DNA of 64,000 nucleotides from Bacillota bacterium (lineage in GTDB: Bacteria; Sysuimicrobiota; Sysuimicrobiia; Sysuimicrobiales; Segetimicrobiaceae), in contig JAJPJJ010000088.1 in NCBI GenBank assembly GCA_021324295.1, positions 24,902 to 88,901 of the forward strand, written 5' to 3'. The notes beneath the pieces were generated by a model. That model was given only the letters and a program-made list of their open reading frames with translations. It had not been told where the DNA came from and made no database searches. Shown piece after piece: positions 35,429 to 61,909 of the stretch. Made by a program: the position numbers and the translations under genes. Position 1 is the first letter of the stretch. Each line of letters starts with the position of its first letter.

Positions 35429-35431
35429 CCG

Positions 35432-38759: not shown

Positions 38760-38767
38760 GGATCCTC

Positions 38768-41073: not shown

Positions 41074-41115
41074 CGGTGTGCTGTGTCGCCTCCATTGTGA
41101 CGCGGGACGGCGGGG

Positions 41116-41134
41116 TTGTCAAATCGATTTGACA
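41116..41134. promoter_or_regulatory. Palindromic operator TTGTCAAA-TCGA-TTTGACA (cre/LacI-type with central CG), in the divergent promoter between lacI and the FAD-oxidoreductase gene.
   Basis: Perfect 18-bp palindrome TGTCAAATCGATTTGACA. The same half-sites recur at 44321 and 61789. Confidence 0.6.
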
Positions 41135-41346
41135 CCCAGCGCCGTCCGCTGATAGCATGGGCGTGTGCGCTGCCGCCGCCGCGTGCGCTCCGCGACCGGG
41201 GCGCCGCGTGGGCGCCCGTCCGGCCCGATGCGCCTGCCTCCCCGTGCCCGGCGCGGCCCCATGCGATCCCCATCCGACGGAGCCGGGGATGCCGCGGTGG
41301 CGCGCGGCTCGTGCGCTGCCATCCCAGGACGCGGAGGTGCCTCACA

Positions 41347-42786
41347 GTGGCGGGCGTGATCGAGGCGGGGCGCGTGGCTGAACCTGCGCGCGAGGTACCC
41401 GTGGCGCATGTCACGGACGTGCTCGTGGTGGGAGGTGGCATCGCGGGCGTGATGGCCGCGATCGCCTCGGGCCGCAGCGGGGCGCCGACGCTGCTGGTCG
41501 AGCGCTTCGGATCCCTCGGCGGCACGGGAACCTCCGCCATGATGAACCTCTTCTACGTCCCCTACGCGGCGTCCCGGGGGCTCGTCCGGGAGCTGCTCGA
41601 TCGCCTCATCGCCCGGGGCGGGGCGATTCCGGGCGAGTTTGTGGTCTACGATCCCGAGCTGTACAAGATCACGGCGCTCGAGATGCTGGCCGAGGCGCAG
41701 GTGAAGATCCTGCTCCACACGCTGGTCAGCGACGTCGTCATGGAGGGCAAGATCCTCCGCGGCATCGTGGTCGAGAACAAGTCCGGCCGCCAGGCGATCC
41801 TGAGCCGCGTGACGGTCGACGCCACCGGCGACGCCGACGTGGCCGCGCGTGCCGGTGCCCCGTACGTCAAGGGCCGGGAGGAGGACGGCAAGATGCGCCC
41901 CATGACGTTGATCTTTCGCATGGGGGGCGTCGATGTGCGCCGGCTGGTCGAGCACGTGCGGACGCACCTCGACGACTTCTCGCCCGATCCGCTCCAGTGC
42001 ATGCTGGACCTCGAGCATCATATGGTCCGCATCTTCGGCTTCTTCAAGCTGGTGGAGGAGGCCAAGGCCCGGGGCGAGTTGTGGCCGGACTGCTACTACT
42101 TCCGCGTCGAGTCCGTGATGCCGGAGCGTGGTGTGCTCACCGTGAACGCGACACGCGTCTATGGCGTCGATGGGACGAGCGCGGAGGATCTGTCCCGCGC
42201 CGAGATCGAGACGCGGCACCAGATGATCCAGCTCGCCGCGTTCGCCCGCAAGTACATTCCGGGGTTCGAGCGCTCGTTCATTCTCGACTCCGCGAGCACG
42301 ATCGGCGTCCGAGAGACACGCCGGGTCCGCGGCGAATATGTGATGACCGAGGACGATATCCTGGCTGGGCGCCACTACGACGACGTGGTGGGAGTCGACG
42401 CCAACCAGCAGAACCCCCGCCAGCAGGGCGGTCACCCGCCGGACGGCAAGGAAGGTGGACCGCAGGACGCCGAGGCGCGGCGGCTCGTTGCCCGCATGTT
42501 CGTCTACGAGATCCCGTACCGCTGCCTGGTCCCCGCGGAGGTCGACGGCCTCCTCGTGGCCGGTCGCTGCCTGTCCGTGGATCACCACGCCGACGTCTAC
42601 ACCCGCAACCAGGGCACGGCGATGGCCTCCGGGGTCGCGGCCGGGGTGGCGGCGGCACTGGCAGCGAGGGCCGGGGTCCCACCGCGGCAGGTCGATGTGC
42701 GGGCCGTCCAGGCCAGGCTCCGGGACCTCGGGGCCGATCTCGATCTGCTGCGCCGCCTCGGGCCGTCGCCGGAGCGCCTGGCATGA
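41347..42786 (+). CDS. FAD-dependent oxidoreductase (FAD_oxidored, PF12831-like). The start is uncertain between 41347 and 41401.
   Basis: N-terminal dinucleotide fold DVLVVGGGIAGVMAAIA...LVER. Contains DATGDADVA and GVRETRRVRGEY. Confidence 0.7.
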   Translation: MAGVIEAGRVAEPAREVPVAHVTDVLVVGGGIAGVMAAIASGRSGAPTLLVERFGSLGGTGTSAMMNLFYVPYAASRGLVRELLDRLIARGGAIPGEFVVYDPELYKITALEMLAEAQVKILLHTLVSDVVMEGKILRGIVVENKSGRQAILSRVTVDATGDADVAARAGAPYVKGREEDGKMRPMTLIFRMGGVDVRRLVEHVRTHLDDFSPDPLQCMLDLEHHMVRIFGFFKLVEEAKARGELWPDCYYFRVESVMPERGVLTVNATRVYGVDGTSAEDLSRAEIETRHQMIQLAAFARKYIPGFERSFILDSASTIGVRETRRVRGEYVMTEDDILAGRHYDDVVGVDANQQNPRQQGGHPPDGKEGGPQDAEARRLVARMFVYEIPYRCLVPAEVDGLLVAGRCLSVDHHADVYTRNQGTAMASGVAAGVAAALAARAGVPPRQVDVRAVQARLRDLGADLDLLRRLGPSPERLA

Positions 42787-42849
42787 GTCAAACCGGCGCG
42801 GACGGCGCCCGACCTCGTGAGCGGCCGACGCGACCGTCGGGAGGCCGGC

Positions 42850-44256
42850 ATGCGCACCCGCGCTGAGGCCGACGTGGTCGTCTGCGGGGGCGGCACGGCG
42901 GGGGCGGTCGCGGCGATCGCCTCGGCGCGCACGGGAGCCCGCACGCTCCTGGTCGATCAGTATGGCCGGGTCGGCGGGATGGCGTCCGCCGGGATGTCCT
43001 TCCTGGGCGTGAGCGACGCGGGCGGCCGACGGGCGCTTGGGGGGATCGGCGCGGAGCTGTTCGAGCGGCTCGAGGCGATCGGGGCAGCGTTCGCGGATCG
43101 CCCCGACCGGCAGGTCGGCTCGGTGACGGTGGCCGACCCGCTCGCCCTGCAGCACGTGCTGCTCACGATGCTGGTGGAGGCCGGGGTCCAGTTCCTGCTG
43201 CACGCATTCTGCGCCGACGTGCTGATGGAGGGGCGACGAGTGCGCGGGATCGTCGTTGCCGACAAGGCGGGCATCGAGCTCGTGCGCGCCCGGGCGATCG
43301 TGGACGCCACAGGGGACGGCGACATCGCGGCGCGGGCTGGCGCGCGATTCGTGCTCGGCCGCGACCGCGACGGCGTCATGCAACCGGCCACCCGCATCTT
43401 CCGTATGGCCGGCGTCGACGTCGAGGCGATGTTCGCCTACCTGCGCGAGCACCCGGAGGAGATGGACGTGCCGGAGCGCTGGGACGGGTCCGGCTACACC
43501 GCCGAGGACCTGCGACATACGTCCGTCGTGATGGACGCGTTCCCGGGGCTCGTGGCGCAGGCCCGCGCCACCGGCGAGCTGACGGTGCCCCGCGATCGGA
43601 TCGGCATCGAGACCGGCCCGGTGCCCGGGGTCGTGACGATCAATGCCACGCGGGTTCATGGGGTCGACGGAACCGATCCGGAGGCGGTGAGCCGCGCCGA
43701 GATCGAGACGCAGCGACAGATGTTCGAAGTGTCCCAGTTCCTGCGCCGCCGCGTCCCGGGGTTCGAGCGCGCGTGGCTGCTCGATGCCGCCTATCAGATC
43801 GGCATCCGGGAGACGCGCCACATCCTCGGGGAGTATGTGCTGACGCTCGACGACGTGCTCGCCGGCCGCGACTTTCCGGACACGGTCGCCCGTGGGGCCT
43901 ACCCGGTGGATCTGCACGACGTCCACGCCGGGGCAGAGGTGCTGGGGCGCGCGGTGGGGGGCGGCGGGGTCACACTCCGGCGGATCGAGCGAGCGTATGG
44001 GATCCCGTTCCGGTGTCTTGTGCCCGCGGACGTCGACGGGGTCGCCGTCGCGGGCCGCGCCATCTCCGCCACCCACGAGGCCGCAGGCTCGGTGCGCGGT
44101 CAGGCGGTGTGCATGGCGACCGGACACGCCGCCGGCACGATCGCCGCGTTGAGCGCCAAGCGGGACATCGTCCCCCGCTCGCTCAGCGTGGCCTCGATCC
44201 AGCAGGTGCTCGCCGCGCAGAGGGCGATCCTCTTCGCGGGATCGGTCCCGCCGTAG
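42850..44256 (+). CDS. FAD-dependent oxidoreductase, paralog 2.
   Basis: Contains DVVVCGGGTAGAVAAIA, DATGDGDIA and GIRETRHILGEY. Confidence 0.7.
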   Translation: MRTRAEADVVVCGGGTAGAVAAIASARTGARTLLVDQYGRVGGMASAGMSFLGVSDAGGRRALGGIGAELFERLEAIGAAFADRPDRQVGSVTVADPLALQHVLLTMLVEAGVQFLLHAFCADVLMEGRRVRGIVVADKAGIELVRARAIVDATGDGDIAARAGARFVLGRDRDGVMQPATRIFRMAGVDVEAMFAYLREHPEEMDVPERWDGSGYTAEDLRHTSVVMDAFPGLVAQARATGELTVPRDRIGIETGPVPGVVTINATRVHGVDGTDPEAVSRAEIETQRQMFEVSQFLRRRVPGFERAWLLDAAYQIGIRETRHILGEYVLTLDDVLAGRDFPDTVARGAYPVDLHDVHAGAEVLGRAVGGGGVTLRRIERAYGIPFRCLVPADVDGVAVAGRAISATHEAAGSVRGQAVCMATGHAAGTIAALSAKRDIVPRSLSVASIQQVLAAQRAILFAGSVPP

Positions 44257-44320
44257 GGCGGCGCGCGGGTCGTGGGGCGCCGTGCTCGCCGGTGGCCTTT
44301 CGACGCCCGGCGCCTGAACC

Positions 44321-44344
44321 GGTTGTCAAAACGGTTTGACAACC
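44321..44344. promoter_or_regulatory. Operator copy 2, GGTTGTCAAA-ACGG-TTTGACAACC, upstream of the SBP gene at 44705.
   Basis: Same inverted half-sites TTGTCAAA/TTTGACAA with a 4-bp spacer. Confidence 0.55.
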
Positions 44345-44704
44345 GAGGCCTGCCGTACTATAATGCACCTACCCCACGGGAGCGCGTTATCGCTCTCTGA
44401 GCCGGGACGGCGGAGCCAGCCCGTTGGCACCTCCGGGACGCGACAACCCATGGCGATGTGCGCAGGCCGGAGGGGCACGGCCCGCCCCGGCGCGGCATCG
44501 TGCCCGCCTGTCTCTCGTTCGCCGCATCCGCCACGCCCGGCGATCGCCCCCTTCCGTCCGGTCCCTGCGTTGAGCACACCGGACCCGCGGACATGAGACA
44601 GCACGGCGGCGGGACTCGCGACCCGACCCCCAGCCGCCGCCTGCGCATTGGCCCTGATCGTGTGACGCCCCGAGACAGCAGCACCGGAGACAAGGAGGGA
44701 TAGC

Positions 44705-46105
44705 ATGTTGCAGCCTCGCAGCGACAGGCACCGGGCGGCGGCCGGCGTCGTGACGGCGCTCCTGCTCCTGCTCGTTGGACTGAGCCCGCTCAGCCAGTCC
44801 TCGCACGCCCAAGGCATGACGACGCTCACGTTTCTCGGGCCAGACTTCGACGAGTGGGTCGCGTTTGTGAAGGTGGCCAACCAGATCGGCAAGCCCATGG
44901 GGATCCAGGTCAAACCCGACTACCTGCCGTGGGACGATGTGTTCCAGAAGGCCCTGATCGATTCCAAGTCCGGGGTCCGGACCTGGGACTACGTGTACGT
45001 GTACAATACATGGGTGCCCGGGCTGTCCGCGGCCAAAGCCATCCTGCCGATCAACGACTTCATGACGAGCCCCGCGGCCACAAGCGCGGTCCAGCCCAAC
45101 GACTTCATCACCCTGACGACCGCGGGGCTGGAGCTCAACGGCAAGCTGTGGGCGATGCCGATGCTGGCGGCGCCGTACATGATGGCGTACCGTACGGACC
45201 TGTTCGCCAACCCGATCGAGAAGAAGGCGTTCCAGGCCAAGTACGGCTACCCGCTCGCCCTCCCCCAGACGTACAAGCAGCTCATGGACGTCGCCCAGTT
45301 CTTCACCCGCAAGGCCGGGGAGAAGTTGATGGGCAAGACGCTCGACCAGGACTTCTACGGGGTCGTCCTGGCGAACAAGAGCGGCGGGTTCCTGTTCCAC
45401 CGGTACGAGCACATCCTGGTGGCGTACGGCGCGAACCTGATCTACGATCCCAAGACGATGCAACCCACGGTGAACTCGCCGCAGGGCATCGCCGCCGCCA
45501 AGTACTACGTCGCGCTCCACAAGTACATGGAGCCCGGCAGCGAGTCGCTCACCGGCGGCGGCGCGGAGCGCATCATGGCTTCCGGCCGGGGCGCCATCGC
45601 CATGGACGCCCTCGACAACATGCTGTCGGTGCTGCCGGTGGCGAAGCTTTCCAAAGTCGTCGGCAAGATCAACTACGCCCTGCTGCCCACGCAGCTCGCG
45701 AGCCGTCCCCACGCCAACGTGGGCGACGCGAACGGCCTGGCGATCTACGCGCTCACCCAGCACCGGGACGCGGCCTTCAAGCTGGCGACTGCGGTCCTGA
45801 ACACGCAGGGCACGAAGCAGGTGATGAAGGAGTACCCGGCGCTCGTGCCCATGCGCGCGTCCGTGATCCACGATCCGGAAGTGCGGACCAACTACGCGCC
45901 CGTGTTCAACGCGATGAGCACGTTCCTCAACGGCAAGCCGTACACGGTCTTCATCCCGCCGCTCAAGGAGTGGGTGCAGGCCCAGGACATCTACGAGCAG
46001 GCGATGTCGGCCGCGATGTCGGGCCAGCAGTCCGTGGAGGACGCGCTCAACGGAGCGCAGGCCAAGGTGGTCGCTCTCTTCAAGCGGCAGGGCTACATCA
46101 AGTAA
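44705..46105 (+). CDS. ABC transporter extracellular solute-binding protein (family 1).
   Basis: Signal peptide followed by the SBP_bac_1 architecture. It heads a three-gene importer operon. Confidence 0.8.
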   Translation: MLQPRSDRHRAAAGVVTALLLLLVGLSPLSQSSHAQGMTTLTFLGPDFDEWVAFVKVANQIGKPMGIQVKPDYLPWDDVFQKALIDSKSGVRTWDYVYVYNTWVPGLSAAKAILPINDFMTSPAATSAVQPNDFITLTTAGLELNGKLWAMPMLAAPYMMAYRTDLFANPIEKKAFQAKYGYPLALPQTYKQLMDVAQFFTRKAGEKLMGKTLDQDFYGVVLANKSGGFLFHRYEHILVAYGANLIYDPKTMQPTVNSPQGIAAAKYYVALHKYMEPGSESLTGGGAERIMASGRGAIAMDALDNMLSVLPVAKLSKVVGKINYALLPTQLASRPHANVGDANGLAIYALTQHRDAAFKLATAVLNTQGTKQVMKEYPALVPMRASVIHDPEVRTNYAPVFNAMSTFLNGKPYTVFIPPLKEWVQAQDIYEQAMSAAMSGQQSVEDALNGAQAKVVALFKRQGYIK

Positions 46106-46176
46106 TGTCGTAGTGCGGCGCGGGAGCCGCCGCCCGCGGGCGGCGGCTCCCCGACGAGGCTCTTCCGGAGCGCGCG

Positions 46177-47076
46177 ATGGGAATGAAATGGGCGGCCCTC
46201 GGCAGCGGCCGCTTCTACTTCTGGATCATGGCGATGCCCGCGGTCCTCTACGTGGCCGCGTGGCGGCTGGCGCCGGCGGTCTACACGCTGTGGCTGGGCC
46301 TGCATCAGTACAACATCGTGTACGACGCCGCGCCGCGCTGGAACCATCTCGCCAACTTCCTCCAGATCCTGCGCGACGGGGCGCTCCGCCAGTCGCTCGG
46401 GCTGTCCGCGCAGTTTGCCGTCATTGCCATGACAGCCGAGGTTCTGATCGGGCTCGCCGCGGCGCTGTTTCTCGACACCGACCCGCCGGGACGGAATCTG
46501 CTGCTCGGCGTGTTCCTGATGCCGATGATCATGGCGCCCGTCGTCGTCGGCACGGCCTGGGGGACGCTCTTCGACCGGACCGTCGGCTACATCCCGTACG
46601 TGCTGCGCCTGCTGCACGGGCCGCAGCTGCAGTGGATGGCGACGCCCGGCACGGCGATGTTCGCGCTACTGGTTGCGGATGCGTGGGAGTGGGCCCCGCT
46701 CGTGACGCTGCTGTTGTTCGCCTCGCTGCAGGCCATCCCGCGCGAGCATTTCGAGGCGGCGCGCGTGGACGGCGCGTCGGGCTGGCAGCTGTTCCGGCGG
46801 ATCATCCTGCCGCAGATCACCGGGATGGTGCTCGTGGCCGCCGGCCTCCGGCTGATGGACGCGTTCCTCGAGCTGGACAAGGTCTTCGTGATGACCGGCG
46901 GAGGGCCGGGCTCGTCGACCCAGTTCGTGAGCATGTTCATCTACAAGCAGGCGTTCCAGTTCTACGAGCTCGGGTACGCGTCGGCGGTGATCACGGTGCT
47001 GCTGGCGGTCCTGGCCGTCGCGTACTGGTTCTACCTGCGCAGCTACTACCGCACCCTCGAGGCGGCCAACCTGTAA
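46177..47076 (+). CDS. Carbohydrate ABC transporter permease (MalF-type).
   Basis: Six TM helices. Contains EAARVDGASGWQLFRRIILP. Confidence 0.8.
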   Translation: MGMKWAALGSGRFYFWIMAMPAVLYVAAWRLAPAVYTLWLGLHQYNIVYDAAPRWNHLANFLQILRDGALRQSLGLSAQFAVIAMTAEVLIGLAAALFLDTDPPGRNLLLGVFLMPMIMAPVVVGTAWGTLFDRTVGYIPYVLRLLHGPQLQWMATPGTAMFALLVADAWEWAPLVTLLLFASLQAIPREHFEAARVDGASGWQLFRRIILPQITGMVLVAAGLRLMDAFLELDKVFVMTGGGPGSSTQFVSMFIYKQAFQFYELGYASAVITVLLAVLAVAYWFYLRSYYRTLEAANL

Positions 47077-47984
47077 TGGACGTCCGTTCGCTGGTCTCGG
47101 GAGAGACCGAGGGGGACGCCGGCGCGCGGGCCCTGCGCGCGAGCACCGGCGCCCGCCGCCGCTCGGCGCTCGCCGTCCGCCGCGCCCGGTGGCACCTGGC
47201 CGGCATTGTCGCGCTGCTTGCCTGGACGCTGCCGCCGTTTCTCTACCTCGTCATGCTGTCGATCAAGCCGGAGCGGATCCTGATCGACCGGTCGGCGCTG
47301 TTCTTCGTGCCGACGTTCGAGCGGTACCGCGACTTCGTCGCCAGCGGGCTGGCGGCGCCGATCTGGACCAGCCTCGTGACGTCCACGCTCGGGGGGCTCG
47401 GCACCGTCGTGCTGGCCGGCCTCGCCGCGATGACGTTCCGCTTTCTCGACTTCAAGGCGAAGACGGTCCTGTTTCTGCTGATTCTCCTGCCCCGGATGTT
47501 CCCGCCGGTGACGACCCTGATCCCGATCCAGCTGACGCTCAAGGCGCTGGGGCTCATCGACACCAAGACGGCGCTCGTCATCCTGTTCATCGGATTTGAG
47601 ATTCCGCTGGCGACGTGGATTCTGCACACCTTCTTCGCCGACGTGCCCCGCGAGCTCGCCGAGAGCGCGGCGCTCGACGGCGCCTCGCTGCCCGCGATCG
47701 TCACGAAGATCCTGCTGCCCCTCGCCGGCCCGGGACTGCTGGCCGCCTTCATCCTGAGCTTCATCTTCAACTGGAACGAGTTTCTCTTTCCGCTCATCGT
47801 CACGAGCTTCAACGCCCGCACCGGCTCGGTGGCCATCATGAGCTTCACCGCCGGCTACAAGAAACTGCAGTGGGGCGCGCTCGCCACGCTCGGGGTCATC
47901 ATGACGATTCCGGTAGTGCTGTTCGTGCTGGCGTTCCGGCAGTCGCTGGTCCGGGGCTTCACCGCCGGCGCGCTGAAAGGCTGA
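47076..47984 (+). CDS. Carbohydrate ABC transporter permease (MalG-type).
   Basis: ATG overlaps the upstream TAA (TAATG). Contains ESAALDGASLPAIVTKILLP. Confidence 0.8.
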   Translation: MDVRSLVSGETEGDAGARALRASTGARRRSALAVRRARWHLAGIVALLAWTLPPFLYLVMLSIKPERILIDRSALFFVPTFERYRDFVASGLAAPIWTSLVTSTLGGLGTVVLAGLAAMTFRFLDFKAKTVLFLLILLPRMFPPVTTLIPIQLTLKALGLIDTKTALVILFIGFEIPLATWILHTFFADVPRELAESAALDGASLPAIVTKILLPLAGPGLLAAFILSFIFNWNEFLFPLIVTSFNARTGSVAIMSFTAGYKKLQWGALATLGVIMTIPVVLFVLAFRQSLVRGFTAGALKG

Positions 47985-48008
47985 TACGTCGACAAACCGG
48001 AGGGACAC

Positions 48009-49580
48009 ATGACTGGAACACCGGAACGGAACGGCGGCCTGACCCGCCGCCGGCTTTTCCGGCTCGCCGCGGGCGCCGCGGCGGCCGGCGCTGCGCTGCC
48101 GGCCGCGGGACCGTTCGGCGAATGGGCGCTCGCCGCGGCGGCGAAGCGCGGCGGCACGCTCACGGTCGGCGTCAACACGGACCTGGTCTCGCTGGACCCC
48201 AACGACATCGTCTTCGCGAACGTGCCGATGTTCTTCCAGGTGTACAACTATCTCGTCAAGTACAGCACCACGCTGCAGCCGCGGCCCGACCTCGCGGAGT
48301 TCTGGGATCTGGCCAAGGACGGCATGAGCGTCGTGTTCCGGCTGCAGGACGGCGTCCGGACGCATTCCGGCGGAACCTTCGGCGCGGACGCACTGATCGC
48401 GAACTTCCACCGGACCAAGGCCAAGGCGACCGGCGGCGGCCTCTACAGTCGCCTCGGCGACTGGGAGGCGGCCGAGCGGGTGGACGCGCGGACCGTGCGG
48501 TTCCGGTTCTCCCATCCCCACCCCGACTACCTGGCGCAGATCGCCCGGTGGGGGATGGTCGATCCGGCGGCCTTCGCGACTGTCAAGCAGAAAGGCGGCG
48601 GGACCGGACCGTTCCGCGTCCAGGAGTGGGTGCCGGGCGACCGCGTGACGTTCGTCCGGTTCGACGGCTACTGGCAGAAGGGGCTGCCGCTGCTCGACCG
48701 CGTGGTCTGCCGCGTCTTCTCCGATCCGCAGGCGCTCGAGAACGCGTTCCAGGCCGGCACGATCGACATCGCGCACACGATCGTCAACAAGGACGTGGCG
48801 CGCCTCCGGCAGGCCGGCTTCCACGTCGAGCCGGCGCCCGTGCCGAACGAGTACTACGTCCTCACGCTCAACACCCGGCGGCCCCCGCTCGACAACATCA
48901 AGGTCCGCCAGGCGATCCAGCTGCTCGTCGACCGCGCCACGGTGTCGCGGACGGTGCTCGGCGGCGTCGCCCGGCCCATCGCGCAGATGGTGACGCCCGC
49001 CTCGCCGGGATACGATCCGCAGATTGAGACCGAGTACGCGTACAACCCCGCGAAGGCGAAGCAGCTGCTCGCCTCGGCCGGCGCCGGGCGCGGCGGACGC
49101 CTGAACTTTCTCACGTCCACGAGCACGCCGGAGCTCCCGCAGATCGCCCAGATCATCCAGGCCGACCTGCAGAAGGCGGGCCTCGACGTCGGCATCACGA
49201 TCCACGAGCCGGCCCAGTACTTCCCGGCGTACTTTGCGGGCAACTTCGACCTGAACCTCTCGTTCCTCACGCTGGCGACGATCGATCCCACGGATTTCAC
49301 GATCAGCTCGGCGTTCAGGACCGACGGAACGAACCCGTCGTGGCTCCAGACGGGGCCGCCGCCCGGGTACATCCAGGGGCTGCAGAACCTCAACGCCACG
49401 TTCAACATGCGGGAACGCTGGACGCGCCTGCGCAGCGTGATCCGGTACATCCTCGAACAGGCGTGGGCCGTGCCGGTCGCGCTGCACCTCCCGACGTACG
49501 GCCTCGGCAAGGCCGTCGAGGGGTTCGAGGTCGACCCGCAGATGCTGCTCCAACTGAGGGGGACCTGGTTGAATCGCTGA
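48009..49580 (+). CDS. ABC transporter substrate-binding protein, family 5 (Dpp/Opp-like), with a TAT signal.
   Basis: Leader RRRLFRLAAGAAAAGAALPAAG. SBP_bac_5-like length and motifs. Confidence 0.8.
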   Translation: MTGTPERNGGLTRRRLFRLAAGAAAAGAALPAAGPFGEWALAAAAKRGGTLTVGVNTDLVSLDPNDIVFANVPMFFQVYNYLVKYSTTLQPRPDLAEFWDLAKDGMSVVFRLQDGVRTHSGGTFGADALIANFHRTKAKATGGGLYSRLGDWEAAERVDARTVRFRFSHPHPDYLAQIARWGMVDPAAFATVKQKGGGTGPFRVQEWVPGDRVTFVRFDGYWQKGLPLLDRVVCRVFSDPQALENAFQAGTIDIAHTIVNKDVARLRQAGFHVEPAPVPNEYYVLTLNTRRPPLDNIKVRQAIQLLVDRATVSRTVLGGVARPIAQMVTPASPGYDPQIETEYAYNPAKAKQLLASAGAGRGGRLNFLTSTSTPELPQIAQIIQADLQKAGLDVGITIHEPAQYFPAYFAGNFDLNLSFLTLATIDPTDFTISSAFRTDGTNPSWLQTGPPPGYIQGLQNLNATFNMRERWTRLRSVIRYILEQAWAVPVALHLPTYGLGKAVEGFEVDPQMLLQLRGTWLNR

Positions 49581-49603
49581 CCCGCCGGAGGCGGTCCAGA
49601 CCG

Positions 49604-50395: not shown

Positions 50396-50401
50396 GCGAC
50401 G

Positions 50402-51361: not shown

Positions 51362-51383
51362 GGCGCGCCGGAGAGCCCGCGGG

Positions 51384-52259: not shown

Positions 52260-52302
52260 CGCGGCCCCCGGCCGGGGTGCCGGAGACGCGAGGTGATGCC
52301 GA

Positions 52303-53697: not shown

Positions 53698-53720
53698 CCG
53701 ACCGGCGGCGGAAGAGGTAG

Positions 53721-55060
53721 GTGCGAATGGACGCGCAAAGGCTGCGGGTGGCGCACTACATCAACCAGTTCTTTGCGGGGATCGGCAGCGAGGAGCGCGC
53801 GGATACGCCGCCCGCCGTCAAGGACGGTCCGGTCGGTCCCGGGCGGGCGATGCAGGCGGCCCTCGGCCCGCACGGCGCCGTGGTCTCCACCATGGTGTGC
53901 GGCGACAGCTATTTCAACGAACAGATCGACTCGCCGCCGAAGCGGTGCGCGCGTGGCTCGGCGCGCAGCGGCCCGACGTGGTGATCGCCGGGCCGGCGTT
54001 CGCCGCGGGCCGGTACGGGCGCGCGTGCGTCGAAGTGTGCCGCATCGCGGCGGACCTCGGGATCCCGGTCGTGACCGGCATGCATCCCGAGAACCCGGGC
54101 CTGCTGATGTACCGGGCGGCGTACGTCGTGCCGACGGCCGGCAACGCCGCCGGCATGAGTGCGGCGCTCGGCGCGATCGTCCCGCTCGCCCGAAAGCTCG
54201 GCGCGCGGCTCCCCGTCGGCCCCGCGGAAGAAGATGGCTATCTGCCGCGCGGCATCCGGCGGCCCGGGACGCGGGCGCGGCCCGGGGCCCGGCGGGCCGT
54301 CGACATGCTCGTCGCCAAGCTCGGCGGACGGCCGTTTCGAACCGAGCTGCCGGTCGAGGGCTACGAGGCCGTCGCGCCCGCGCCACCGGTCGCGGACCTG
54401 CTGCACGCGACGATCGCGGTGGTGACGACCGGCGCGATCGTGCCGAAGGGCAATCCGGACCACCTCAAGCGGTGCAGCGAGACGCGGTGGCGGCGCTACG
54501 AGCTCGCGGGCCGCCGGCGCCTCACGCCGGACGAGTTCGAGTGCGTCCACGGCGGCTTCTACAACGTCCCGGCGTCGGAGAACCCCAACGTTGTGCTGCC
54601 GCTCGACGCGCTGCGCGAGCTCGAGGACCGCGGCGCCTTCGCGCGGCTGGCCGACTTCTACTGCACCACCACCGGCAACGATCAGCGGTTCGCGGACTGC
54701 GTGCGCAACGGCAAGGAGATCGCCGAGCTGCTCTGGCAGGAGCGCATCGACGGCGTGCTGCTGGTCGCCCCCTGAGGGTCGTGCAATCGTTGCGGCGCAA
54801 CGATCAGCAAAGAGATCGAGCGGCGGCGGATCCCGGTCGCCGTGATCAGCGCGCTGCCGCCGCTCGCGATGCAGGCCGGCGCGAACCGCGTCGTCCAGGG
54901 CGTCAAGATCGAGCACGTCTGCGGCGATCCCGCGCTGCCGGCCGAGGAGGACGGCGCGGTGCGCCGGCGGCTGGTGGAGCGCGGGCTGCGGGCGCTTGCG
55001 ACCGCGGTGGAGCGTCCCACGCTGTTCGAAGACGACGGCGCGGTGGTGACGGCGCGATGA
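53721..55060 (+). pseudogene. Second GrdB-family selenoprotein gene. It has an in-frame UGA at 54773-54775 plus SECIS, and an apparent -1 frameshift near 53931.
   Basis: Frame A (53721..) reads ...VCGDSYFNEQID. Frame B (53897..) continues AAEAVRAWLGAQRPDVVIAG... Both are colinear with the intact minus copy. After LLVAP-UGA, the sequence GSCNRCGATISKEIE... is followed by the identical hairpin ATCGTTGCGGCGCAACGAT at 54786-54804. Confidence 0.6.
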
Positions 55061-56363
55061 CGGCCTCGATGAATCTGACCGTGGGAACGTTCCCCGTCCG
55101 CGAGGTGGCCTTCGGCGCCCCGGCGGGATGGAAGGACGGGCGGCTCGTCGTCGACGCGGACCGCGTGGCGGCGCTCGTACGGGAAGACCGCCGGATCCGC
55201 CGCGTCGCCGTGGACCTGGTCCGGCCGGGCGAGGCGGCGCGGATCGTGCAGGCGCGCGACGTGATCGAACCGCGCGTCAAGGTCGACGGCCCCGGACACA
55301 CCTACCCGGGCATCTGCGGCCACGCCCCGGACACCGTCGGCGACGGCGTGACACACCGCTACGCCGGCTTCGGCGTGCTGATCGCGTCCGAGGCGCTGCC
55401 GCACATCCGGCGCACCGTCAGCGCGGCCACGGACAGCCTCATCGACATGTCGGGGCCGGGCGCCGTGACCGTGTACAGCACGCTGCGGTACGTCGTGCTG
55501 ACGATCGAGACCTGCCGGATCTCGACCTGACGTCGTGGAACGACGCGCTGCGCGGGGCCGGCCACCGCGTCGCGGCCGACCTCGCGGAGCTCGTGCGCGG
55601 GCAGACGCCGCCGGACCGGCGTGCGTACCGGCTGGCGCCGCCCGCCGCCGGGCGTCCGCGGGTCGTGCACGTGCACACGCTCAACGCCTCGATGGTCCCG
55701 GGGATCGGGACCGGCATCTACGGGTATACGCAGCACGCCCTGCCGGTGCTGCTGCACCCGAACGAGATCCTCGGGCGACGCCGTCGTCACGTACCCCGGC
55801 AAGTGCACGTGGCTGCACGTGAACAACCCGGTGCTCGACGCGCTGTACGAACGCGACGGGACGGACGTCGTCTGGCTCGGCTCGATCATCTCGCGCACGC
55901 GGTGGGCGGGCTCGACGAGAAGCGGCTGAGCGCGTACCAGACCGCCAAACTGGCCGCGATGCTCGGCGCCGACGGCGCGCTCGTCACCTGGAACCACGGC
56001 GGCAACGACCTCCTCGAGGTGATGATGACGATTCAAAGCCTCGAGCGCGCGGGCATCAAGACGACGTTCCTCACCATCGAATCGGACATCAAGGTGGTCC
56101 GGATGACGCCCGCGCTCGCGGAGACGAGTACCACGGAGCCGTCGCTGCTGTTCAGCGTGCCGGAGGCCGACGCGATCGTCAGCACGGGCACCCTCGCGCC
56201 GGCCGATCCGCTGCCGGCGATGCCGCGGGTCATCGGCGGCCGCGAGGTCGTCTTCAACCAGGAGCGCCCGGACGTGCGCACGCCGGCGGCCGGTCCGCTG
56301 GACCTCGAGGCGGTGTCCGGCGCGTACTCACCGATCTTCGACACTTCGACAACTACGGCTTGA
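55057..56363 (+). pseudogene. Second GrdE-like gene, with at least three frame changes relative to the minus copy.
   Basis: Segments MTASMNLTVGTFPV...LTIET, then DLDLTSWNDALRGAGH..., then GDAVVTYPGKCTWLHVNNPV (ORF 55621..55929), then RLSAYQTAKLAAMLGADGALVTWNHGGNDL... lie in different frames. The first shift falls at a CC/CCC run near 55515. Confidence 0.55.
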
Positions 56364-56378
56364 GGTGTCAGAGCTACC

Positions 56379-57835
56379 TTGACTACTGAGCGCGCGAGAT
56401 CAGTCCCGAGCGGCATCCGGCCCGTCATCCGCGCGGCGCGGTTCGCGATCGCCCACGCGCCGGGCCTGATTCCGTCCGGCTCCAAGCCGCGGCGGGAGCT
56501 CGCAGCACGCGGCGCGGCCGAGCGCGAGGCGCTGCTCACGCACCTGCGGTCCTTCGAGGACGCCGTGCGGTATCCGCCGCACCAGGTGATGCTCGGAACG
56601 CTCCCGCCCGAGGCGCTGCGCGGGATTCCACGGCCCTGGCACGACCGGCCGGTGGACGGGGCGCGCGCGGAGGGGCCCGGCGGTCGCATGCTCGACGAGA
56701 TGGAGTTCTATGCCTGGCTGGCGCGGGCGGATACGGCGAGCCTGCTCTACGTCACCCCGGAGTTCGCGCGGACGCTCGACACTTCGGCGCGCCCGAGCGT
56801 CTCCAGACGATGGCCGCCGCCGACCTGGCCCGCGCCGTCGAACGCGGCGCGGAGCCGCTGCGCCGCGCGCCGAACGAGACGGTCGGCGCCGTCGTCCCCG
56901 CGCACGAGCAGGACGAGTCCCTCGCGGCGCCCGTGCTGCTGGAGAACCTCGCCGCCAAGGTCACAGGCGGCCTCGCCCTGCGGACGCTCCTCGAGGCCGT
57001 TCCCGCCGCCGATGCGCCAATCGACTACCTGATCGGATGCGGCGAGGAGGCCGTGGGCGACCGGTATCAGCGCGGCGGCGGCAACCTCGCGAAAGCCATG
57101 GGAGAACTCGCCGGCGTCCGAACCGCCGGGGCGTCGGATGTCAAGTCGTTCTGCGCGAGCCCGCTGCACGCGCTCCTGGTGGCCGGGGCCTTGATCGCCG
57201 GCGGTGTGTACCGGCGCGTGGTCGTGGTCGCGGGCGGGTCGCTCGCGAAGCTGGGCATGAAGTACCGCGGGCACCTGGCCGCCGGCTATCCGGTGCTGGA
57301 AGACGTTATTGTCGGCGCCGCGATCGACGTCGTGCCGGACGACGGACGCAGTCCCGTCCTCCGCCTCGACGCCGCCGCGGTGCACCGGGTCGGCGACGGC
57401 GCGGCCCCCCACCAGATGGCCCAGGTGCTGTCCGCGGCGCCGCTGCGGGCCGCCGGCCTGCGGCTGTCCGACGTGGACCGGTACGCCGTCGAACTGCATA
57501 ACCCGGACATCACCGAGCCCGCGGGATCCGGCGACGTGCCGTACCGCAACTACCAGATGATCGCCGCGCTGGCCGCGCACGCCGGGGAGATCGAGCGTTC
57601 GGCGATGGACCGCTTCGTCGAGGCGCACGGGATGCCGGGGTTCTCGCCGACGCAGGGGCACATCGCGTCGGCCGTGGCGTATTTGCCGCACGCCATCGCC
57701 GGCCTCACGGAAGGCCGGCTGCAACGGGTGCAGCTCGTGGCCAAGGGCACATGGCGGACGGCGCCAGCCTGCTGCTCGAACGAAACGGGGTGCCGCCGGC
57801 CGGAGGGAGGCCCGCATGATCGATCTGCACGATAA
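56379..57835 (+). pseudogene. Second GrdC-like gene, with a frameshift near 56800 and a disrupted 3-prime end.
   Basis: 56379 frame (...FYAWLARADTASLLYVTPEFARTLD) then 56810 frame (...VPAHEQDESLAAPVLLENLAAK...FCASPLHALLVAGALIAGGVYRRVVVVAGGSLAKLG...) match the minus copy. The C-terminus diverges into the IS remnant. Confidence 0.5.
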
Positions 57836-58308
57836 GCTCGTCCTCGCGCTCGGCGAGCGCGACGGCATTCCGGCAGCAACGCCGCCGCCAGCCACCGGTG
57901 CTTCTGGTTGCTGGTGCGCCACCGATCCACTTTCCCCGTCCGCATCTCGACCCCGCTGAACACCGACTCCAGCATGTTCGTCGTCGCCAGCGTCTGCCGG
58001 AGGGTCGGCCCCACCCCGAGCCGGTGCACGGTGAGCGCCTCCTCCGGCCCCTCGTCCAAACTGCGCAGTGCGGACTCGTTGAGCCGCCGGAGGTCCGCCC
58101 GGAGCTCCTCGAATGCGGCTTTCGCCTCCGCGTAGGTCGGCTGCGCGTACGCCCGCGCGAGCTTGCCGCGCCACACCGCCTGCTGGCTCTTGGGGAGGTA
58201 CGCGATGACGTTTTCGCGCTTGTGGTACTGACACCGCTGAACGGGGGTCTCCGGGCCGAAGACTTCCTCCACGCCGGCCTGCAGCCCCTCGCTCCCATCG
58301 ATGATCAC
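57835..58308 (-). mobile_element. IS256-family transposase remnant (C-terminal half only).
   Basis: The segment MIIDGSEGLQAGVEEVFGPETPVQRCQYHKRENVIAYLP...TTNMLESVFSGVEMRT matches the IS256/mutator DDE region. The N-terminal half is absent. The 3-prime extent is approximate. Confidence 0.55.
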
Positions 58309-58320
58309 CAGTAGCCCCGA

Positions 58321-59196
58321 GGTATCGTCAAGTGGTGTGGAAACGGGAAAGGCGGTCGGTTACCCTCTTGGTGAGCAAAACCAGAGACCGGGTTGAGGGC
58401 CCGGAAGGAGGGGAACCGCCGCCATGCACCAGCACACCACAGTCGCGCCCGCGTCGTCAAGCATCGTCTGGGACAATTTGGACACTTGGGTCGCCGTGGC
58501 CGGATGCAGCGATGGTCGCAAGGTCGTGGTCGCCGTGACGCCCGGGGCGCGGGAGTCAGTGGAGAGCTGGGCCGCGCTGCTCCGGGACCTGCGGGCGCGC
58601 GGGATGCCGTGTCCCCGGCTGGTGATCGGCGATGGGCACCTGGGGATCTGGGGCGCGCTGCGCCAGGTGTACCCCGAGGCGGCCGAGCAGCGCTGCTGGA
58701 ACCACCGGCTGCTCAACCTCCTGGACAAACTGCCCCGGACGCAGCACGCCGCGGCGAAGCCGCTGCTGACCGCGATCGCGTACGCGCCCACCCGCGCGGA
58801 GGCTGAGCAACGACGCGCGGCATTCGAGACGTGGTGCCGCCGGCACGGCTATGACCACGCCGCCGTGGCCGTGAGCCGGGATTGGGAGCGGTTCGTGACC
58901 TTCTATCGGTTCCCGCGGGAGCACTGGCGGCACCTGCGGACGTCGAACATCGTGGAGTCGCCGCTGGCGGCGCTGCGCCTGCGCACCGATGCGGCCAAGC
59001 GATTCAAGCGCGTCGCCAACGCCACCGCCGTGATCTGGAAGATGCTCATGGTCGCCGAGACCCGGTTCCGTCGGCTCAACGCCCCGGAGCTCGCGAAGCG
59101 CGTCTACCTGGGCATCGAGTACCAAGACGGAGTCGAGGTCACCACCAAGCAGGGGGCCGTCGCGTGAGGCCCGTTTCCACACCACTTGACGATACC
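58321..59196 (+). mobile_element. Internally deleted IS256-family element bounded by perfect 27-bp inverted repeats.
   Basis: Left IR GGTATCGTCAAGTGGTGTGGAAACGGG (58321-58347). Right IR is its exact reverse complement (59170-59196). The interior encodes only the C-terminal two thirds of a transposase (58424..59167). Confidence 0.7.
58424..59167 (+). CDS. Truncated IS256-family transposase ORF inside the element.
   Basis: The segment ...VVVAVTPGARESVESWAALLRDLRARGMPCPRLVIGDGHLGIWGALRQVYPEAAEQRCWNHRLLNL...RTSNIVES is colinear with the IS256 DDE core. It lacks the N-terminal DNA-binding third. Confidence 0.6.
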   Translation: MHQHTTVAPASSSIVWDNLDTWVAVAGCSDGRKVVVAVTPGARESVESWAALLRDLRARGMPCPRLVIGDGHLGIWGALRQVYPEAAEQRCWNHRLLNLLDKLPRTQHAAAKPLLTAIAYAPTRAEAEQRRAAFETWCRRHGYDHAAVAVSRDWERFVTFYRFPREHWRHLRTSNIVESPLAALRLRTDAAKRFKRVANATAVIWKMLMVAETRFRRLNAPELAKRVYLGIEYQDGVEVTTKQGAVA

Positions 59197-59469
59197 TCAC
59201 CCGGACGACGCAGGCTTCAAGCGCACGCCGCCGCTCTCCACAGCATCGTCCACCCGCGCGGGCCGATCTATCGAACTAGGATTCCGCCTGTGATTGCAGT
59301 CAGGCTGCGACAGGTGTTTCGTCCCCAATTTGTCACTCCCTCTGTTTTCTTCACAATATTCACAGCAGATTCATATCGCTTGTCTATGATCGCTTTGCAA
59401 CAAGGTCTTGAGGGGCATCGCGCGACCGATCAGAGAGCCGTTCGAACCGGGACAACAGAGAGGAGCGTA

Positions 59470-60408
59470 GTGTGCGCAGCCGGCGTATCAGCCGCAACGC
59501 CAGCAGCCGGACCCGCGGCAGTTCCCGCCGGCCTACCAGCCGCAGCCGCGTCAGCCACAGCTGGGATGAGCCCGCTGGGCGGACCCCGCCGGAACGCGCG
59601 CCGGAGGCGATGGGGACACGTCGTCGGGACCGCGCTCCTGCTCGCGTGGACGCTCCCGCCGTTCCTCTACCTCGTGATGCTGTCGCTCAAGCCCGAGCGG
59701 ATCCTGATCGACAGGTCCCAGGTCCTCTTCTGGCCCACCCTGGAACGGTACCGGGATTTCATCGCGAGCGGGCTGGGGCTGCCGATCTGGAACAGCCTGG
59801 TCACGTCGACGCTCGGGTCGATGGGGACGCTGGTCCTCGGCGGCCTCGCCGCCCTGACGTTCAGCTTTCTCGAGTTCAGGGGCAAGGCCCTCTTGTTCCT
59901 CGTGATCCTGCTCCCGAGGATGTTCCCACCTGTCACGACGCTGATCCCGATCCAGTTGATGCTGAAGGGGCTGGGCCTCATCGACACCAGGCTGGCCCTT
60001 ATCATCTTGTTCACGGGGTTCGAGATCCCGCTGGCGATCTGGGTTTTGCGGACGTTCCTCGACGAGATCCCGCGCGAGCTGGCGGAGAGCGCGGCGCTCG
60101 ACGGTGCGTCCTTCCCGGCGATCATCGCCAAGGTGATCCTGCCGTTGTCGGGACCGGGGCTGCTGGCCGCGTTCATCCTGAGCTTCATCTTCAACTGGAA
60201 CGAGTTCCTGTTTCCCCTCATCGTGACGAGCTTCAACGCGCGGACCGGCGCCGTGGCCATTATGAGCTTCACCGCCGGGTACAAGAAGCTGCAGTGGGGG
60301 GCCCTCGCGACCCTCGGCGTGGTGATGACGATCCCCGTGATCCTCTTCGTGCTGGCGTTCCGCGGGTCGCTGGTTCGAGGCTTTACAGCCGGCGCCCTGA
60401 AAGGGTGA
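59470..60408 (+). CDS. Orphan carbohydrate ABC permease (MalG-type), a close paralog of the 47076..47984 gene.
   Basis: GTG start after GAGAGGAG. From TLPPFLYLVMLS onward it is near-identical to the 47076 permease. No SBP or partner permease is adjacent. Confidence 0.7.
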   Translation: MCAAGVSAATPAAGPAAVPAGLPAAAASATAGMSPLGGPRRNARRRRWGHVVGTALLLAWTLPPFLYLVMLSLKPERILIDRSQVLFWPTLERYRDFIASGLGLPIWNSLVTSTLGSMGTLVLGGLAALTFSFLEFRGKALLFLVILLPRMFPPVTTLIPIQLMLKGLGLIDTRLALIILFTGFEIPLAIWVLRTFLDEIPRELAESAALDGASFPAIIAKVILPLSGPGLLAAFILSFIFNWNEFLFPLIVTSFNARTGAVAIMSFTAGYKKLQWGALATLGVVMTIPVILFVLAFRGSLVRGFTAGALKG

Positions 60409-60462
60409 GGGCGGGGGAAGCCCCCGCCCCACGCCGGCCACGCCCGGGCGCCTGGCCCGGCC

Positions 60463-61632
60463 TCAGATCTTCACCATGACTTTGCCGTCCTGCCGTTGGC
60501 TCGCGCGGACCACGGCGTCCGGCGCCGCGCTGAGGGGGAAGCGGCTCGTGATGATCGGCCGCAGGTCGACCCGCCCCGAGGCCATGAGCCGCGTGACGTG
60601 CTGGAACGTCCCGTACCCCGAGTGCCCCTGCGCCCCGAAGACCTGCCCAGCCCGTGTCTGGAAGTGCTCCAGGTACAACGGCGCCCGCTCCGCCGCGCGT
60701 CCGATGATCACGACCTTGCCCCCGATCGCCAGCGCCTGCTCCATCTCCGGCACCGTGACCGCCGGCGCGCCGGCCGCCTCCACCTGCATGTCGGCGCCCG
60801 CGCCCCCGCTCGCCTGGAGGATCACCTCGTGCGGGCTGCCCCCGGCCCGCTGGAGCGCCACAGGGTCGTGCACCTCGTCCGCGCCCACCTGCCGCGCGAG
60901 CGCCTGCCGCACCGGGCTCACCTCGAACGCGATCACCCGGCTCGCGCCTGCCGCCCGCGCCAGCGCGATCGCCGCGAACCCGATCGGCCCGGTGCCGTAC
61001 ACCGCCACGATGCCGCCCGGCGGGAACCCGCCGGCCCGTACGAACATCCCATTGTAGGCGACGCTGGTGGGTTCGCACAGCGCCCCGGCCTCGCACGCCG
61101 CTTCCGCGCTCCCATAGCGCTCGGCCAGCGCGCCGATCGGCCAGCAGTACTTGGCCCCCACCACGAGCTGTTCGGCCATCGCGCCGTTGATCGTGAACCC
61201 CAGCTCCTCGAGATTCTCACACTGGTTGGGCCAGCCGTTGCGGCACGGCAGGCAGTGGCCGCACCAGATCATCTCCTCCATCGTGACCAGATCGCCGGGC
61301 CGCAGGTCTCGGACGTCGCGGCCGACCTCGATGACCTCGCCACTGGTCTCGTGGCCGATGATCACGGGGAACCGGGTCAGCCCCGGGTAGCGGATATAGC
61401 CTGCCGCGTCGGTCTCGTAGAAGTGCACATCGCTGCCGCAGACGCCGCAGGCCCTCGGCCGCACCCTCACGTCCTGGGGCCCGAGCGGCGGCTCCGGCAC
61501 CTCGACGAGCCCGAGGTGGGGATGGCGCCAGACGCTGGAGCCGGTCACCGCCTTGCGGGTGCGCTGCTCGAACTCGGAGACCCGGTACTCCGGGCGGGGT
61601 GCCCACTCCGCGGTGAACTGCAGTCCCTTCAT
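60463..61632 (-). CDS. Zn-dependent alcohol dehydrogenase (MDR, sorbitol-DH/inosose-dehydrogenase-like).
   Basis: Start MKGLQF. Contains GVCGSDVH, GHETSGEV and CGHCLPC. Rossmann motif GTGPIG. Confidence 0.8.
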   Translation of the reverse strand: MKGLQFTAEWAPRPEYRVSEFEQRTRKAVTGSSVWRHPHLGLVEVPEPPLGPQDVRVRPRACGVCGSDVHFYETDAAGYIRYPGLTRFPVIIGHETSGEVIEVGRDVRDLRPGDLVTMEEMIWCGHCLPCRNGWPNQCENLEELGFTINGAMAEQLVVGAKYCWPIGALAERYGSAEAACEAGALCEPTSVAYNGMFVRAGGFPPGGIVAVYGTGPIGFAAIALARAAGASRVIAFEVSPVRQALARQVGADEVHDPVALQRAGGSPHEVILQASGGAGADMQVEAAGAPAVTVPEMEQALAIGGKVVIIGRAAERAPLYLEHFQTRAGQVFGAQGHSGYGTFQHVTRLMASGRVDLRPIITSRFPLSAAPDAVVRASQRQDGKVMVKI

Positions 61633-61788
61633 CTTTACACCTCTGTCCGTGCCGTGTGCGGGCGCATCCTCGTGGCGCGATCGCGGTCGTCCGCGGGTCG
61701 CCGGCGACGGCCGCAGACCGCGCTTCCTCTCGTGCCGCGGATCGGCCGCCACGGCAGGCGTACTTCATTCTGCGCCATCCCGCCGCTG

Positions 61789-61810
61789 TTTGTCAAATCG
61801 GTTTGACAAA
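61789..61810. promoter_or_regulatory. Operator copy 3, TTTGTCAAA-TCGG-TTTGACAAA, in the divergent region between the ADH gene and the TIM-barrel gene.
   Basis: Same half-sites as 41116 and 44321. Confidence 0.55.
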
Positions 61811-61909
61811 CGCCGGCGGCCGGCCATAAGATGGGTGGTGATCCGCGCGCCCCGCGTGCGTCTCCCGCACGAGCGGGACGCGTCGTGCCCTCGTGCCGGA
61901 GGGGATGCG

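Follow-up and report, generated by a model that had tools for sequence, protein, structure and literature searches.

What controls an obscure catabolic gene cluster in an uncultured soil bacterium with a high G+C content is the question raised by a 64,000-nt stretch of contig JAJPJJ010000088.1 (assembly GCA_021324295.1, positions 24,902 to 88,901), referred to here as the window. A gene for a LacI-family regulator (lacI) lies within this cluster, and a 20-bp palindrome recurs between its genes. We conclude that the conserved 18-bp core of this palindrome, TGTCAAAnCGnTTTGACA, is most probably the operator of the repressor encoded at 40042-41067, a local and autoregulated LacI-family protein that would control inositol- or aminocyclitol-type catabolism and transport. 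A pattern search of the window for TTGTCAAA-N4-TTTGACAA, allowing up to 3 mismatches, returned exactly 3 matches:

41116-41135, site 1, TTGTCAAATCGATTTGACAC, 1 mismatch (last base), in the spacer of lacI and flavin adenine dinucleotide (FAD) oxidoreductase 1 (FAD1)
44323-44342, site 2, TTGTCAAAACGGTTTGACAA, 0 mismatches, in the spacer of FAD oxidoreductase 2 (FAD2) and a sugar-binding protein gene
61790-61809, site 3, TTGTCAAATCGGTTTGACAA, 0 mismatches, in the spacer of an IolM-like zinc (Zn)-dehydrogenase and a TIM-barrel gene

No match to the 20-bp pattern was obtained in 100 dinucleotide-preserving shuffles of the window. The shorter core GTCAAA-N4-TTTGAC, allowing up to 2 mismatches, returned the identical 3 sites (0.12 expected), and the half-site TTGTCAAA was confined to them (5 arms in the window versus 0.09 expected). 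Weaker copies were absent from the window at 4 mismatches, nor did the 8.7 kb that follow it on the source contig contain a further copy. Because the G+C content of the window is about 72%, such an A+T-rich 20-mer is very unlikely to occur by chance. When the 3 site regions were aligned, they were alike only in the palindrome and in a TAnnAT -10-like hexamer located 17-18 nt downstream of it; since the similarity stops there, the sites are not copies of a longer repeat. The first-pass annotation of this DNA had reported three copies of the inverted half-sites at these same intergenic places, and both points were borne out. Its start position was exact for site 1 but fell short by 2 nt for site 2 and by 1 nt for site 3, and its description of the regulon as dispersed is overstated, as all 3 sites lie within one 31-kb gene cluster. 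A GC-rich dyad symmetry was also observed to run 6-12 bp past the 20-bp core (41100-41151, 44307-44358 and 61774-61825, with flank-shuffle p = 0.04, 0.03 and <0.003, respectively); the flanks differ between the sites, the extended symmetry is missing at most orthologous sites, and we judged it to be no conserved feature.

All 3 sites are intergenic. The centre of site 1 is located 58 bp from the ATG of lacI and 221 bp from the GTG of FAD1, and that of site 3 lies 167 bp from the start of the dehydrogenase gene and 110 bp from the start of the TIM-barrel gene. Site 2 begins 67 nt past the FAD2 stop codon and is centred 372 bp upstream of the sugar-binding protein start. All 5 distances fall inside the -400 to +100 promoter zone, and 2 of the 5 are in the commonest range of 30-140 bp. 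The element has the form that is the norm for LacI-family operators, an even palindrome within 16-22 nt, and carries the central CG at positions 10-11 in 11 of the 11 sites that we compiled. In this family, 1251 of 1303 motifs are even palindromes of 16-22 nt, 1173 (about 90%) have a central CG, and 72% of the regulators are autoregulated (PMC4052901).

The regulator encoded beside site 1 has the architecture expected of this family:

40042-41067, minus strand, LacI-family regulator of 341 amino acids (ATG at 41067), with the Pfam LacI helix-turn-helix (HTH) and Peripla_BP_3/1 domains

Its N-terminus matches the LacI HTH family PF00356 (residues 9-53, 59.8 bits, cutoff 27) and its C-terminus a periplasmic-binding-protein-like effector domain (Peripla_BP_3, 135 bits; Peripla_BP_1, 68 bits). 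The protein aligns over its full length with the structures of CcpA, PurR and LacI, and its relatives in the PDB are CelR-like proteins, CcpA and PurR. The contig index searched contained no identical protein. The recognition helix reads VSVPTASQALNG. The hinge, TPHAAARRL, aligns with RPNAVARGL of CcpA and appears to contain the hinge-helix leucine. In the published PurR and LacI structures, this leucine inserts into the central CG step of the operator.

To compare the motif across relatives, we used a one-genome-per-species scan, which recovered 80 loci with LacI homologues. Five of these are orthologues of the regulator (L001-L005, 69-85% identity), all from unclassified soil metagenome-assembled genomes, some of them labelled 'Bacillati bacterium ANGP1', and the other 75 are paralogues (identity of 40% or less). 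Two extra orthologues (L215 and L212, both 71% identity) came from other searches. The exact core TGTCAAAnCGnTTTGACA occurs once per locus, 80-160 bp upstream of lacI, in L001-L005, and it is also found between lacI and FAD1 in L215. In L212 the core is present upstream of lacI in a half-degenerate form. The exact core is thus found in 6 orthologous loci and a degenerate one in the seventh, so that the motif adjoins every recovered orthologue of the regulator. Conversely, the core is missing, even with up to 3 mismatches allowed, from all 75 paralogue loci (1.35 Mb in total, 65% G+C). In an alignment of six orthologous lacI-FAD1 spacers, which share a mean identity of 54%, the 18-bp palindrome is invariant; the other invariant blocks are the lacI -10 element (ATTGTG) and the Shine-Dalgarno sequence and start of FAD1. 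This comparison, which the first-pass annotation had proposed as a check, thus found the core kept at the lacI orthologues and, as described below, at site 3 in two other lineages.

The motif and the recognition helix also vary together. All recovered orthologues share the helix V-S-(V/L)-P-T-A-S-Q-A-L-N-G, of which PTASQALNG was found in none of the 75 paralogues; these have TVSR or TVSK, and the clade thus carries Q where the paralogues carry R or K. In the LacI and CcpA complexes, a helix arginine contacts the G at position +/-6 of the operator. The pairing of Q in the helix with C at operator position +/-6 in this clade is a suggestive correlation.

Each arm of the palindrome is at the same time an outward-facing TTGACA -35 box (right arm on the plus strand, left arm on the minus strand), a feature that the first-pass annotation had not reported. 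A consensus promoter scan of the window yielded seven promoter-like sites, and all five that scored at least 10/12 use an arm of the palindrome as their -35 element:

41094-41122, minus strand, predicted lacI promoter: left arm TTGACA, 17 nt, CACAAT; score 10/12
41129-41158, plus strand, predicted FAD1-FAD2 promoter: right arm TTGACA, 18 nt, TAGCAT; score 10/12
44336-44364, plus strand, predicted promoter of the sugar ATP-binding cassette (ABC) operon: right arm TTGACA, 17 nt, TATAAT; score 12/12, the full consensus
61767-61796, minus strand, predicted promoter of the IolM-like dehydrogenase: left arm TTGACA, 18 nt, CAGAAT
61803-61832, plus strand, predicted promoter of the TIM-barrel operon: right arm TTGACA, 18 nt, TAAGAT

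The -10 elements are conserved as well. That of lacI (ATTGTG on the plus strand) is invariant in the orthologue alignment, with an identical TTGACA-N17-CACAAT in L212, and the TAGCAT of FAD1 is kept in L001-L003. On the dehydrogenase side of site 3, a -10-like hexamer lies at an equal distance in L218 and L212. At site 2, the scan found no minus-strand promoter. Neither did it detect other promoter-like sites in 29500-41200, or in 44000-58500 besides site 2, which fits with, and does not prove, long operons driven from the sites.

L212 separates the two layers of constraint. In this locus, CCGCCAAATCGATTTGACAA (13488-13507) lies upstream of the LacI orthologue without a divergent partner gene. 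The lacI-proximal arm and the TTGACA-17-CACAAT promoter are intact, and the distal arm reads CCGCCAAATCG; this arm retains the inner CAAATCG and no longer has the outer bases that a -35 hexamer requires. L212 may therefore be regarded as a natural control: this pattern is as expected if the inner ~14 bp are held for a DNA-binding protein and the outer bases are held where a second promoter is needed. It agrees with the statement that in the LacI family the seven base pairs nearest the operator centre make the base contacts (PMC4052901).

Conservation of the motif at a target gene, away from the regulator, was observed for site 3, and emerged only when the dehydrogenase was used as query. In L218/L219, ATGTCAAATCGATTTGACAA is located in the orthologous spacer of the TIM-barrel and dehydrogenase genes (80% and 87% identical to those of the window, respectively), which have the same divergent arrangement and -10 elements at the same distances. 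The dehydrogenase gene of L218 is followed by IolN (503 bits, cutoff 245) and by an IolO-like gene that is borderline (298.1 bits versus a cutoff of 300), and the motif heads this iolM-iolN-iolO-like operon. In L212/L213, a lineage of 65% G+C, a perfect TTGTCAAATCGATTTGACAA is located 109 bp upstream of an 88%-identical dehydrogenase gene, and a LacI orthologue is encoded 5.6 kb from this site. The operon divergent from the dehydrogenase in L212/L213 contains creatininase-family, Gfo/Idh/MocA, sugar ABC, glycerophosphodiester phosphodiesterase and inositol monophosphatase genes. In a four-way alignment of site 3, the palindrome is the sole invariant block and the -10-like hexamers hold their distance on both sides. 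Around TIM-barrel homologues of 81% identity or less, found in MR_MLE-GFO-TIM or DegT/GFO-TIM contexts, the motif was absent. Altogether, the form of the motif, its conservation with the regulator orthologues, the 75 motif-free paralogue loci and the conservation of site 3 support the proposal of the first-pass annotation that the sites are operators of the adjacent LacI-family protein, and would place their target genes in one regulon.

From these features we infer that the repressor binds the palindrome as a dimer, with its hinge helices inserted at the central CG step, and that the bound dimer covers the -35 hexamers and excludes RNA polymerase, so that it would repress rather than activate. 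Because each arm is an outward-facing -35 hexamer, one dimer could block both divergent promoters at sites 1 and 3. Occupation of site 1 would block the predicted lacI operon and FAD1-FAD2, that of site 3 the IolM-like dehydrogenase and the TIM-barrel operon, and that of site 2 the single promoter ahead of the sugar ABC operon and its following genes. Binding of a small-molecule effector to the sugar-binding domain would then release the repressor and induce the transport and catabolic genes together with lacI itself (autoregulation). The effector is most likely an inositol-derived or aminocyclitol-type compound, which is a guess. Inositol or aminocyclitol substrates are suggested by the targets, which include IolM, IolN, IolO-like and IolG-like proteins, a DegT aminotransferase, an inositol monophosphatase and a glycerophosphodiesterase. 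Members of the DegT family include scyllo-inosose aminotransferases. In L215 (1-21392), the lacI operon was also seen to include genes for a glycerophosphodiester phosphodiesterase and an inositol monophosphatase, and the same two gene types occur in the operon divergent from the IolM-like gene of L212 (1-7452), which hints at glycerophosphoinositol-type compounds among the substrates.

Several observations weigh against this interpretation. The motif was counted over the 64-kb window and 8.7 kb of the source contig, which is a part of the genome. Site 2, at 372 bp, lies beyond the 30-140 bp range in which more than 75% of the known LacI-family sites are found, and no counterpart of it was detected in the FAD2/sugar-binding protein gene spacers of L004, L005, L215, L216 and L217. 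These spacers are 106-175 bp long and cannot be aligned with the 450-bp spacer of the window; site 2 thus appears particular to this organism among the relatives compared, and the ABC genes of relatives without it apparently rely on the site-1 promoter. In line with this, L215 has one site ahead of an unbroken gene string from FAD1 to the Grd-like genes. L214 encodes an 86%-identical dehydrogenase in a different context and has no motif. In addition, the promoter calls assume that sigma-70-type -35 and -10 elements hold in this uncultured lineage, and because the arms also serve as -35 boxes, promoter function alone could account for some of their conservation.

This last point can be taken further, by supposing that the palindrome is nothing but a compact bidirectional promoter with back-to-back -35 hexamers and no dedicated factor. 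It is true that both arms match TTGACA perfectly, that -10-like hexamers follow at 17-18 nt, and that sites 1 and 3 are flanked by divergent genes. However, the six central bases between the hexamers (AAnCGnTT), none of which a promoter needs, are invariant or symmetric across lineages, site 2 has a perfect left arm without a minus-strand promoter or a gene for it to serve, and the distal arm of L212 dropped its -35 bases and kept the inner ones. Moreover, the motif follows one LacI clade and is absent from the 1.35 Mb around the paralogues, which makes a promoter without a dedicated factor highly improbable. A different regulator could still read the motif, either the GntR/FCD protein encoded at 23682-24491 or a factor encoded elsewhere, because in most loci co-location of the motif with lacI is also co-location with FAD1. 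In L212, however, the motif lies upstream of lacI without FAD1. In its form (even palindrome, central CG, AAnCGnTT) the motif conforms to the LacI family (PMC4052901), a helix confined to this clade pairs with a motif equally confined to it, and the GntR gene is 17 kb off with no site near it. We consider a regulator other than the LacI-family protein very unlikely.

Granted that the LacI-family protein binds the sites, it might do so as an activator or a dual regulator, like the few dual factors known in the family, e.g., PckR, FruR/Cra and CcpA (PMC4052901). There is little chance that this is so: the site covers the -35 hexamers, which is the classic position for steric repression, the promoters are near-consensus (10-12 of 12) and hence need no activator, and among local LacI-family regulators, repression by the ligand-free protein is the prevailing mode (PMC4052901). 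In our view it is extremely improbable that the sites represent a small dispersed repeat of the MITE or REP type, an RNA hairpin or a terminator with no operator role. The sites do fold into stable hairpins (z -3.8 to -5.8), the GC-rich dyad symmetry extends past the core at the 3 window sites, site 2 lies just past the FAD2 stop codon, and an unrelated metagenome repeat family holds the same 18-mer. Against this, there is no similarity past the 20 bp and the -10 box, and only three copies exist in 64 kb. Sites 1 and 3 would not be transcribed, since divergent -10 boxes flank them, no U-tract follows the sites and a terminator scan flagged none, and the extended symmetry is missing at most orthologous sites. 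The metagenome repeat itself is of ~45% GC and has a different extended unit.

That repeat family deserves a separate description. The metagenome pattern matches listed were swamped by a family of ~45% G+C containing TGTCAAACCGGTTTGACA (L081-L200; contigs Ga0056108, Ga0056133-136, Ga0209259 and Ga0209459), with the unit cacgatacaaccggtTGTCAAACCGGTTTGACAaccggttgtatcgtg often present in several copies per 1-3 kb contig. The 18-mer is common to this repeat and the operator by coincidence, and because the unrelated repeat dominates, the metagenome matches are uninformative on this lineage.

We then compared the putative repressor with known systems. In its general features it most resembles the local, autoregulated LacI-family sugar repressors, among them the seven 'IolR' groups of this family for which inositol-utilisation regulons have been reconstructed in RegPrecise (Ravcheev et al. 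2014, PMC4052901). Features in common are the LacI HTH plus periplasmic-binding fold, the even 18-20-bp palindrome centred on CG, autoregulation through a site in the divergent spacer beside the regulator, and a small regulon of transporter and catabolic genes with inositol-type targets. In contrast to those systems, the half-site here is TGTCAAA, with C at +/-6 where cre-type sites have G, the helix reads TASQ instead of TVSR/K, both arms are exact -35 hexamers, and the host is an uncultured soil lineage of ~72% GC. The best structure match, the CelR-type regulator PDB 5ysz (E = 5e-44, residues 4-335), shares the full-length LacI-family architecture. This similarity is distant, and because the recognition helices differ (GTVSRVING in CelR versus PTASQALNG here), a different operator is expected.

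The first-pass annotation had also called the arms cre/LacI-operator-like. The LacI-type form is correct (even palindrome, central CG), whereas the cre part of this description does not hold in the strict sense. The PDB structures that best match the regulator include CcpA, and the sites share with cre (TGWAANCGNTNWCA) the register around the central CG, T-n-A-A-A-n-CG-n-T-T-T-n-A. However, they read TCAAAnCGnTTTGA, C and G having changed places at +/-6 (two mismatches), and no match to the cre consensus TGWAANCGNTNWCA was found in the window at up to 1 mismatch. The regulator scores 137.1 bits against the NCBIfam CcpA model TIGR01481, the cutoff of which is 442, and is local beside its targets, whereas CcpA is global. 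Identity with cre/CcpA was rejected on both counts, since the consensus fails and the protein is far below the ccpA cutoff.

With regard to the target genes, the closest comparison is the inositol pathway of Thermotoga maritima, which proceeds through IolM, IolN and IolO (Rodionova et al. 2013, as cited in PMC3750489) and is encoded in an operon controlled by a ROK-family IolR (PMC3750489). The dehydrogenase of the window passes the IolM model, and the motif of L218 precedes iolM, iolN and an iolO-like gene. The systems differ in that the window itself holds iolM only and in that the regulator belongs to the LacI family, not to the ROK family. A LacI-family protein appears to have taken the role of the ROK IolR here.

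To delimit the predicted operons, we built gene models from a G+C frame plot at third codon positions (GC3), Pfam and NCBIfam. The GC3 frame plot was used because lists of open reading frames (ORFs) are unreliable at this G+C content. Downstream of lacI and co-directional with it are the following genes:

38768-39991, minus strand, DegT-family aminotransferase
37632-38675, minus strand, Gfo/Idh/MocA dehydrogenase
36406-37605, minus strand, Zn-dehydrogenase
30048-36400, minus strand, co-directional genes for an IolG-like Gfo/Idh/MocA protein, an intact GrdB-like protein (in-frame TGA), Gly_reductase, DUF5940 and a TIM-barrel protein

The lacI-DegT pair is kept in all recovered orthologous loci, and a Gfo/Idh/MocA gene is next in L004, L005, L212 and L215. 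Tight packing and the absence of another promoter-like site would place the 30048-36400 genes in the putative regulon, and for the Grd-like genes this link is suggested by operon geometry and by synteny in L215. On the other side of site 1, the plus-strand genes are:

41347-42786, plus strand, FAD1, a PF12831 oxidoreductase, with a GTG start that is preceded by a GGAGG Shine-Dalgarno sequence and retained across the alignment
42817-44256, plus strand, FAD2, a PF12831 oxidoreductase
44705-53697, plus strand, site-2 unit: sugar-binding protein (ATG 44705), two permeases, a peptide/opine-type binding protein, a creatininase-family protein, two Dpp-type permeases and a third PF12831 protein
53741-57835, plus strand, another copy of the Grd-like operon, broken by frameshifts, which closes the gene string of site 2

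The gene order of the site-2 unit is repeated in L004 and L215. Between the perfect site-2 promoter and the sugar-binding protein gene, a leader of ~335 nt (44365-44704) was noted, which matched no Rfam family, does not fold with unusual stability (z = -0.7) and lacks homology to the short FAD2/sugar-binding protein gene spacers of the relatives. The promoter-operator-leader segment of site 2 looks like a recent acquisition. The claim of the first-pass annotation that the Grd-hybrid operon, the FAD oxidoreductases, an ABC importer and the far-right gene pair are linked is upheld with corrections. Conservation of sites 1 and 3 speaks for it; site 2 is organism-specific, and the Grd-like genes are joined solely through co-directional structure.

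The two Grd-like copies (31384-35426 and 53741-57749) form a 4.1-kb inverted duplication of GrdB-like, Gly_reductase and DUF5940 genes that is 74.6% identical. The ORFs of the right-hand copy are split identically in three independent assemblies, which argues against sequencing error, and this copy is therefore probably a decaying pseudo-operon. Both GrdB-like genes have an in-frame TGA, at 34391-34393 (gene 34127-35431, minus strand) and at 54773-54775 (plus strand). Its context is VA(T/P)-U-GSCNRCGA and the high-GC3 coding goes on past it; the TGA probably encodes selenocysteine. Further right, two Mutator-family transposase fragments (57550-58308, minus strand, and 58424-59167, plus strand) and a truncated duplicate of the second sugar ABC permease (59638-60408, 80% identical to 47214-47984) were found. 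This suggests that a rearrangement mediated by insertion sequences may have joined the site-3 locus to the main cluster. The site-3 locus consists of:

60463-61632, minus strand, IolM-like Zn-dehydrogenase (ATG 61632), which passed the NCBIfam IolM equivalog
61910-62686, plus strand, xylose-isomerase-like TIM-barrel gene
62811-63785, plus strand, beta-propeller SGL/Vgb-lyase-like gene

Past the end of the window, this gene string goes on with a sugar ABC importer, EthD and a PfkB kinase. The dehydrogenase scores 537.8 bits against NF041097 (IolM, scyllo-inosose 3-dehydrogenase; cutoff 450) over positions 1-388 of 389. Neither IolN nor IolO was detected in the window: the creatininase-family gene matches only a generic creatininase model (63 bits) instead of IolN, and the two TIM-barrel genes, with 31 and 77 bits, fall short of the IolO cutoff of 300. 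The literature yielded nothing relevant on DUF5940 or scyllo-inosamine catabolism. Separately, the sole Rfam match in the window is a c-di-GMP-I riboswitch aptamer at 13304-13397 on the minus strand (RF01051, 56.9 bits, gathering cutoff 35).

The regulatory mechanism proposed here is itself conventional, being ordinary bacterial gene control. What it would bring together is less so, because one repressor may govern a selenocysteine GrdB-like module, three PF12831 flavoproteins, a DegT protein, IolG/IolM dehydrogenases and two kinds of ABC importer. It is conceivable, and in our estimation rather unlikely, that this uncultured soil lineage has here a pathway not described before. Import of an N-linked conjugate of inositol or an aminocyclitol, resembling an opine or a rhizopine, would be followed by reductive cleavage of its C-N bond by an enzyme akin to glycine reductase, and the cyclitol would then be broken down by a Thermotoga-type route. 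If this were true, the regulon would be the first handle on the substrate of that pathway.

The analysis yields a testable regulatory map of an obscure gene cluster in an uncultured high-GC soil bacterium, with one predicted repressor, one 18-bp operator and five promoters, and with a conserved core regulon made up of lacI-DegT, the FAD oxidoreductases and the IolM-like dehydrogenase with its TIM-barrel gene. It also offers a clean example of a dual-function sequence, in which the arms of the putative operator are the -35 boxes. In practice, the map gives a context for the odd Grd-like and flavoprotein genes, and the regulator and its sites may provide an inducible promoter-repressor pair.

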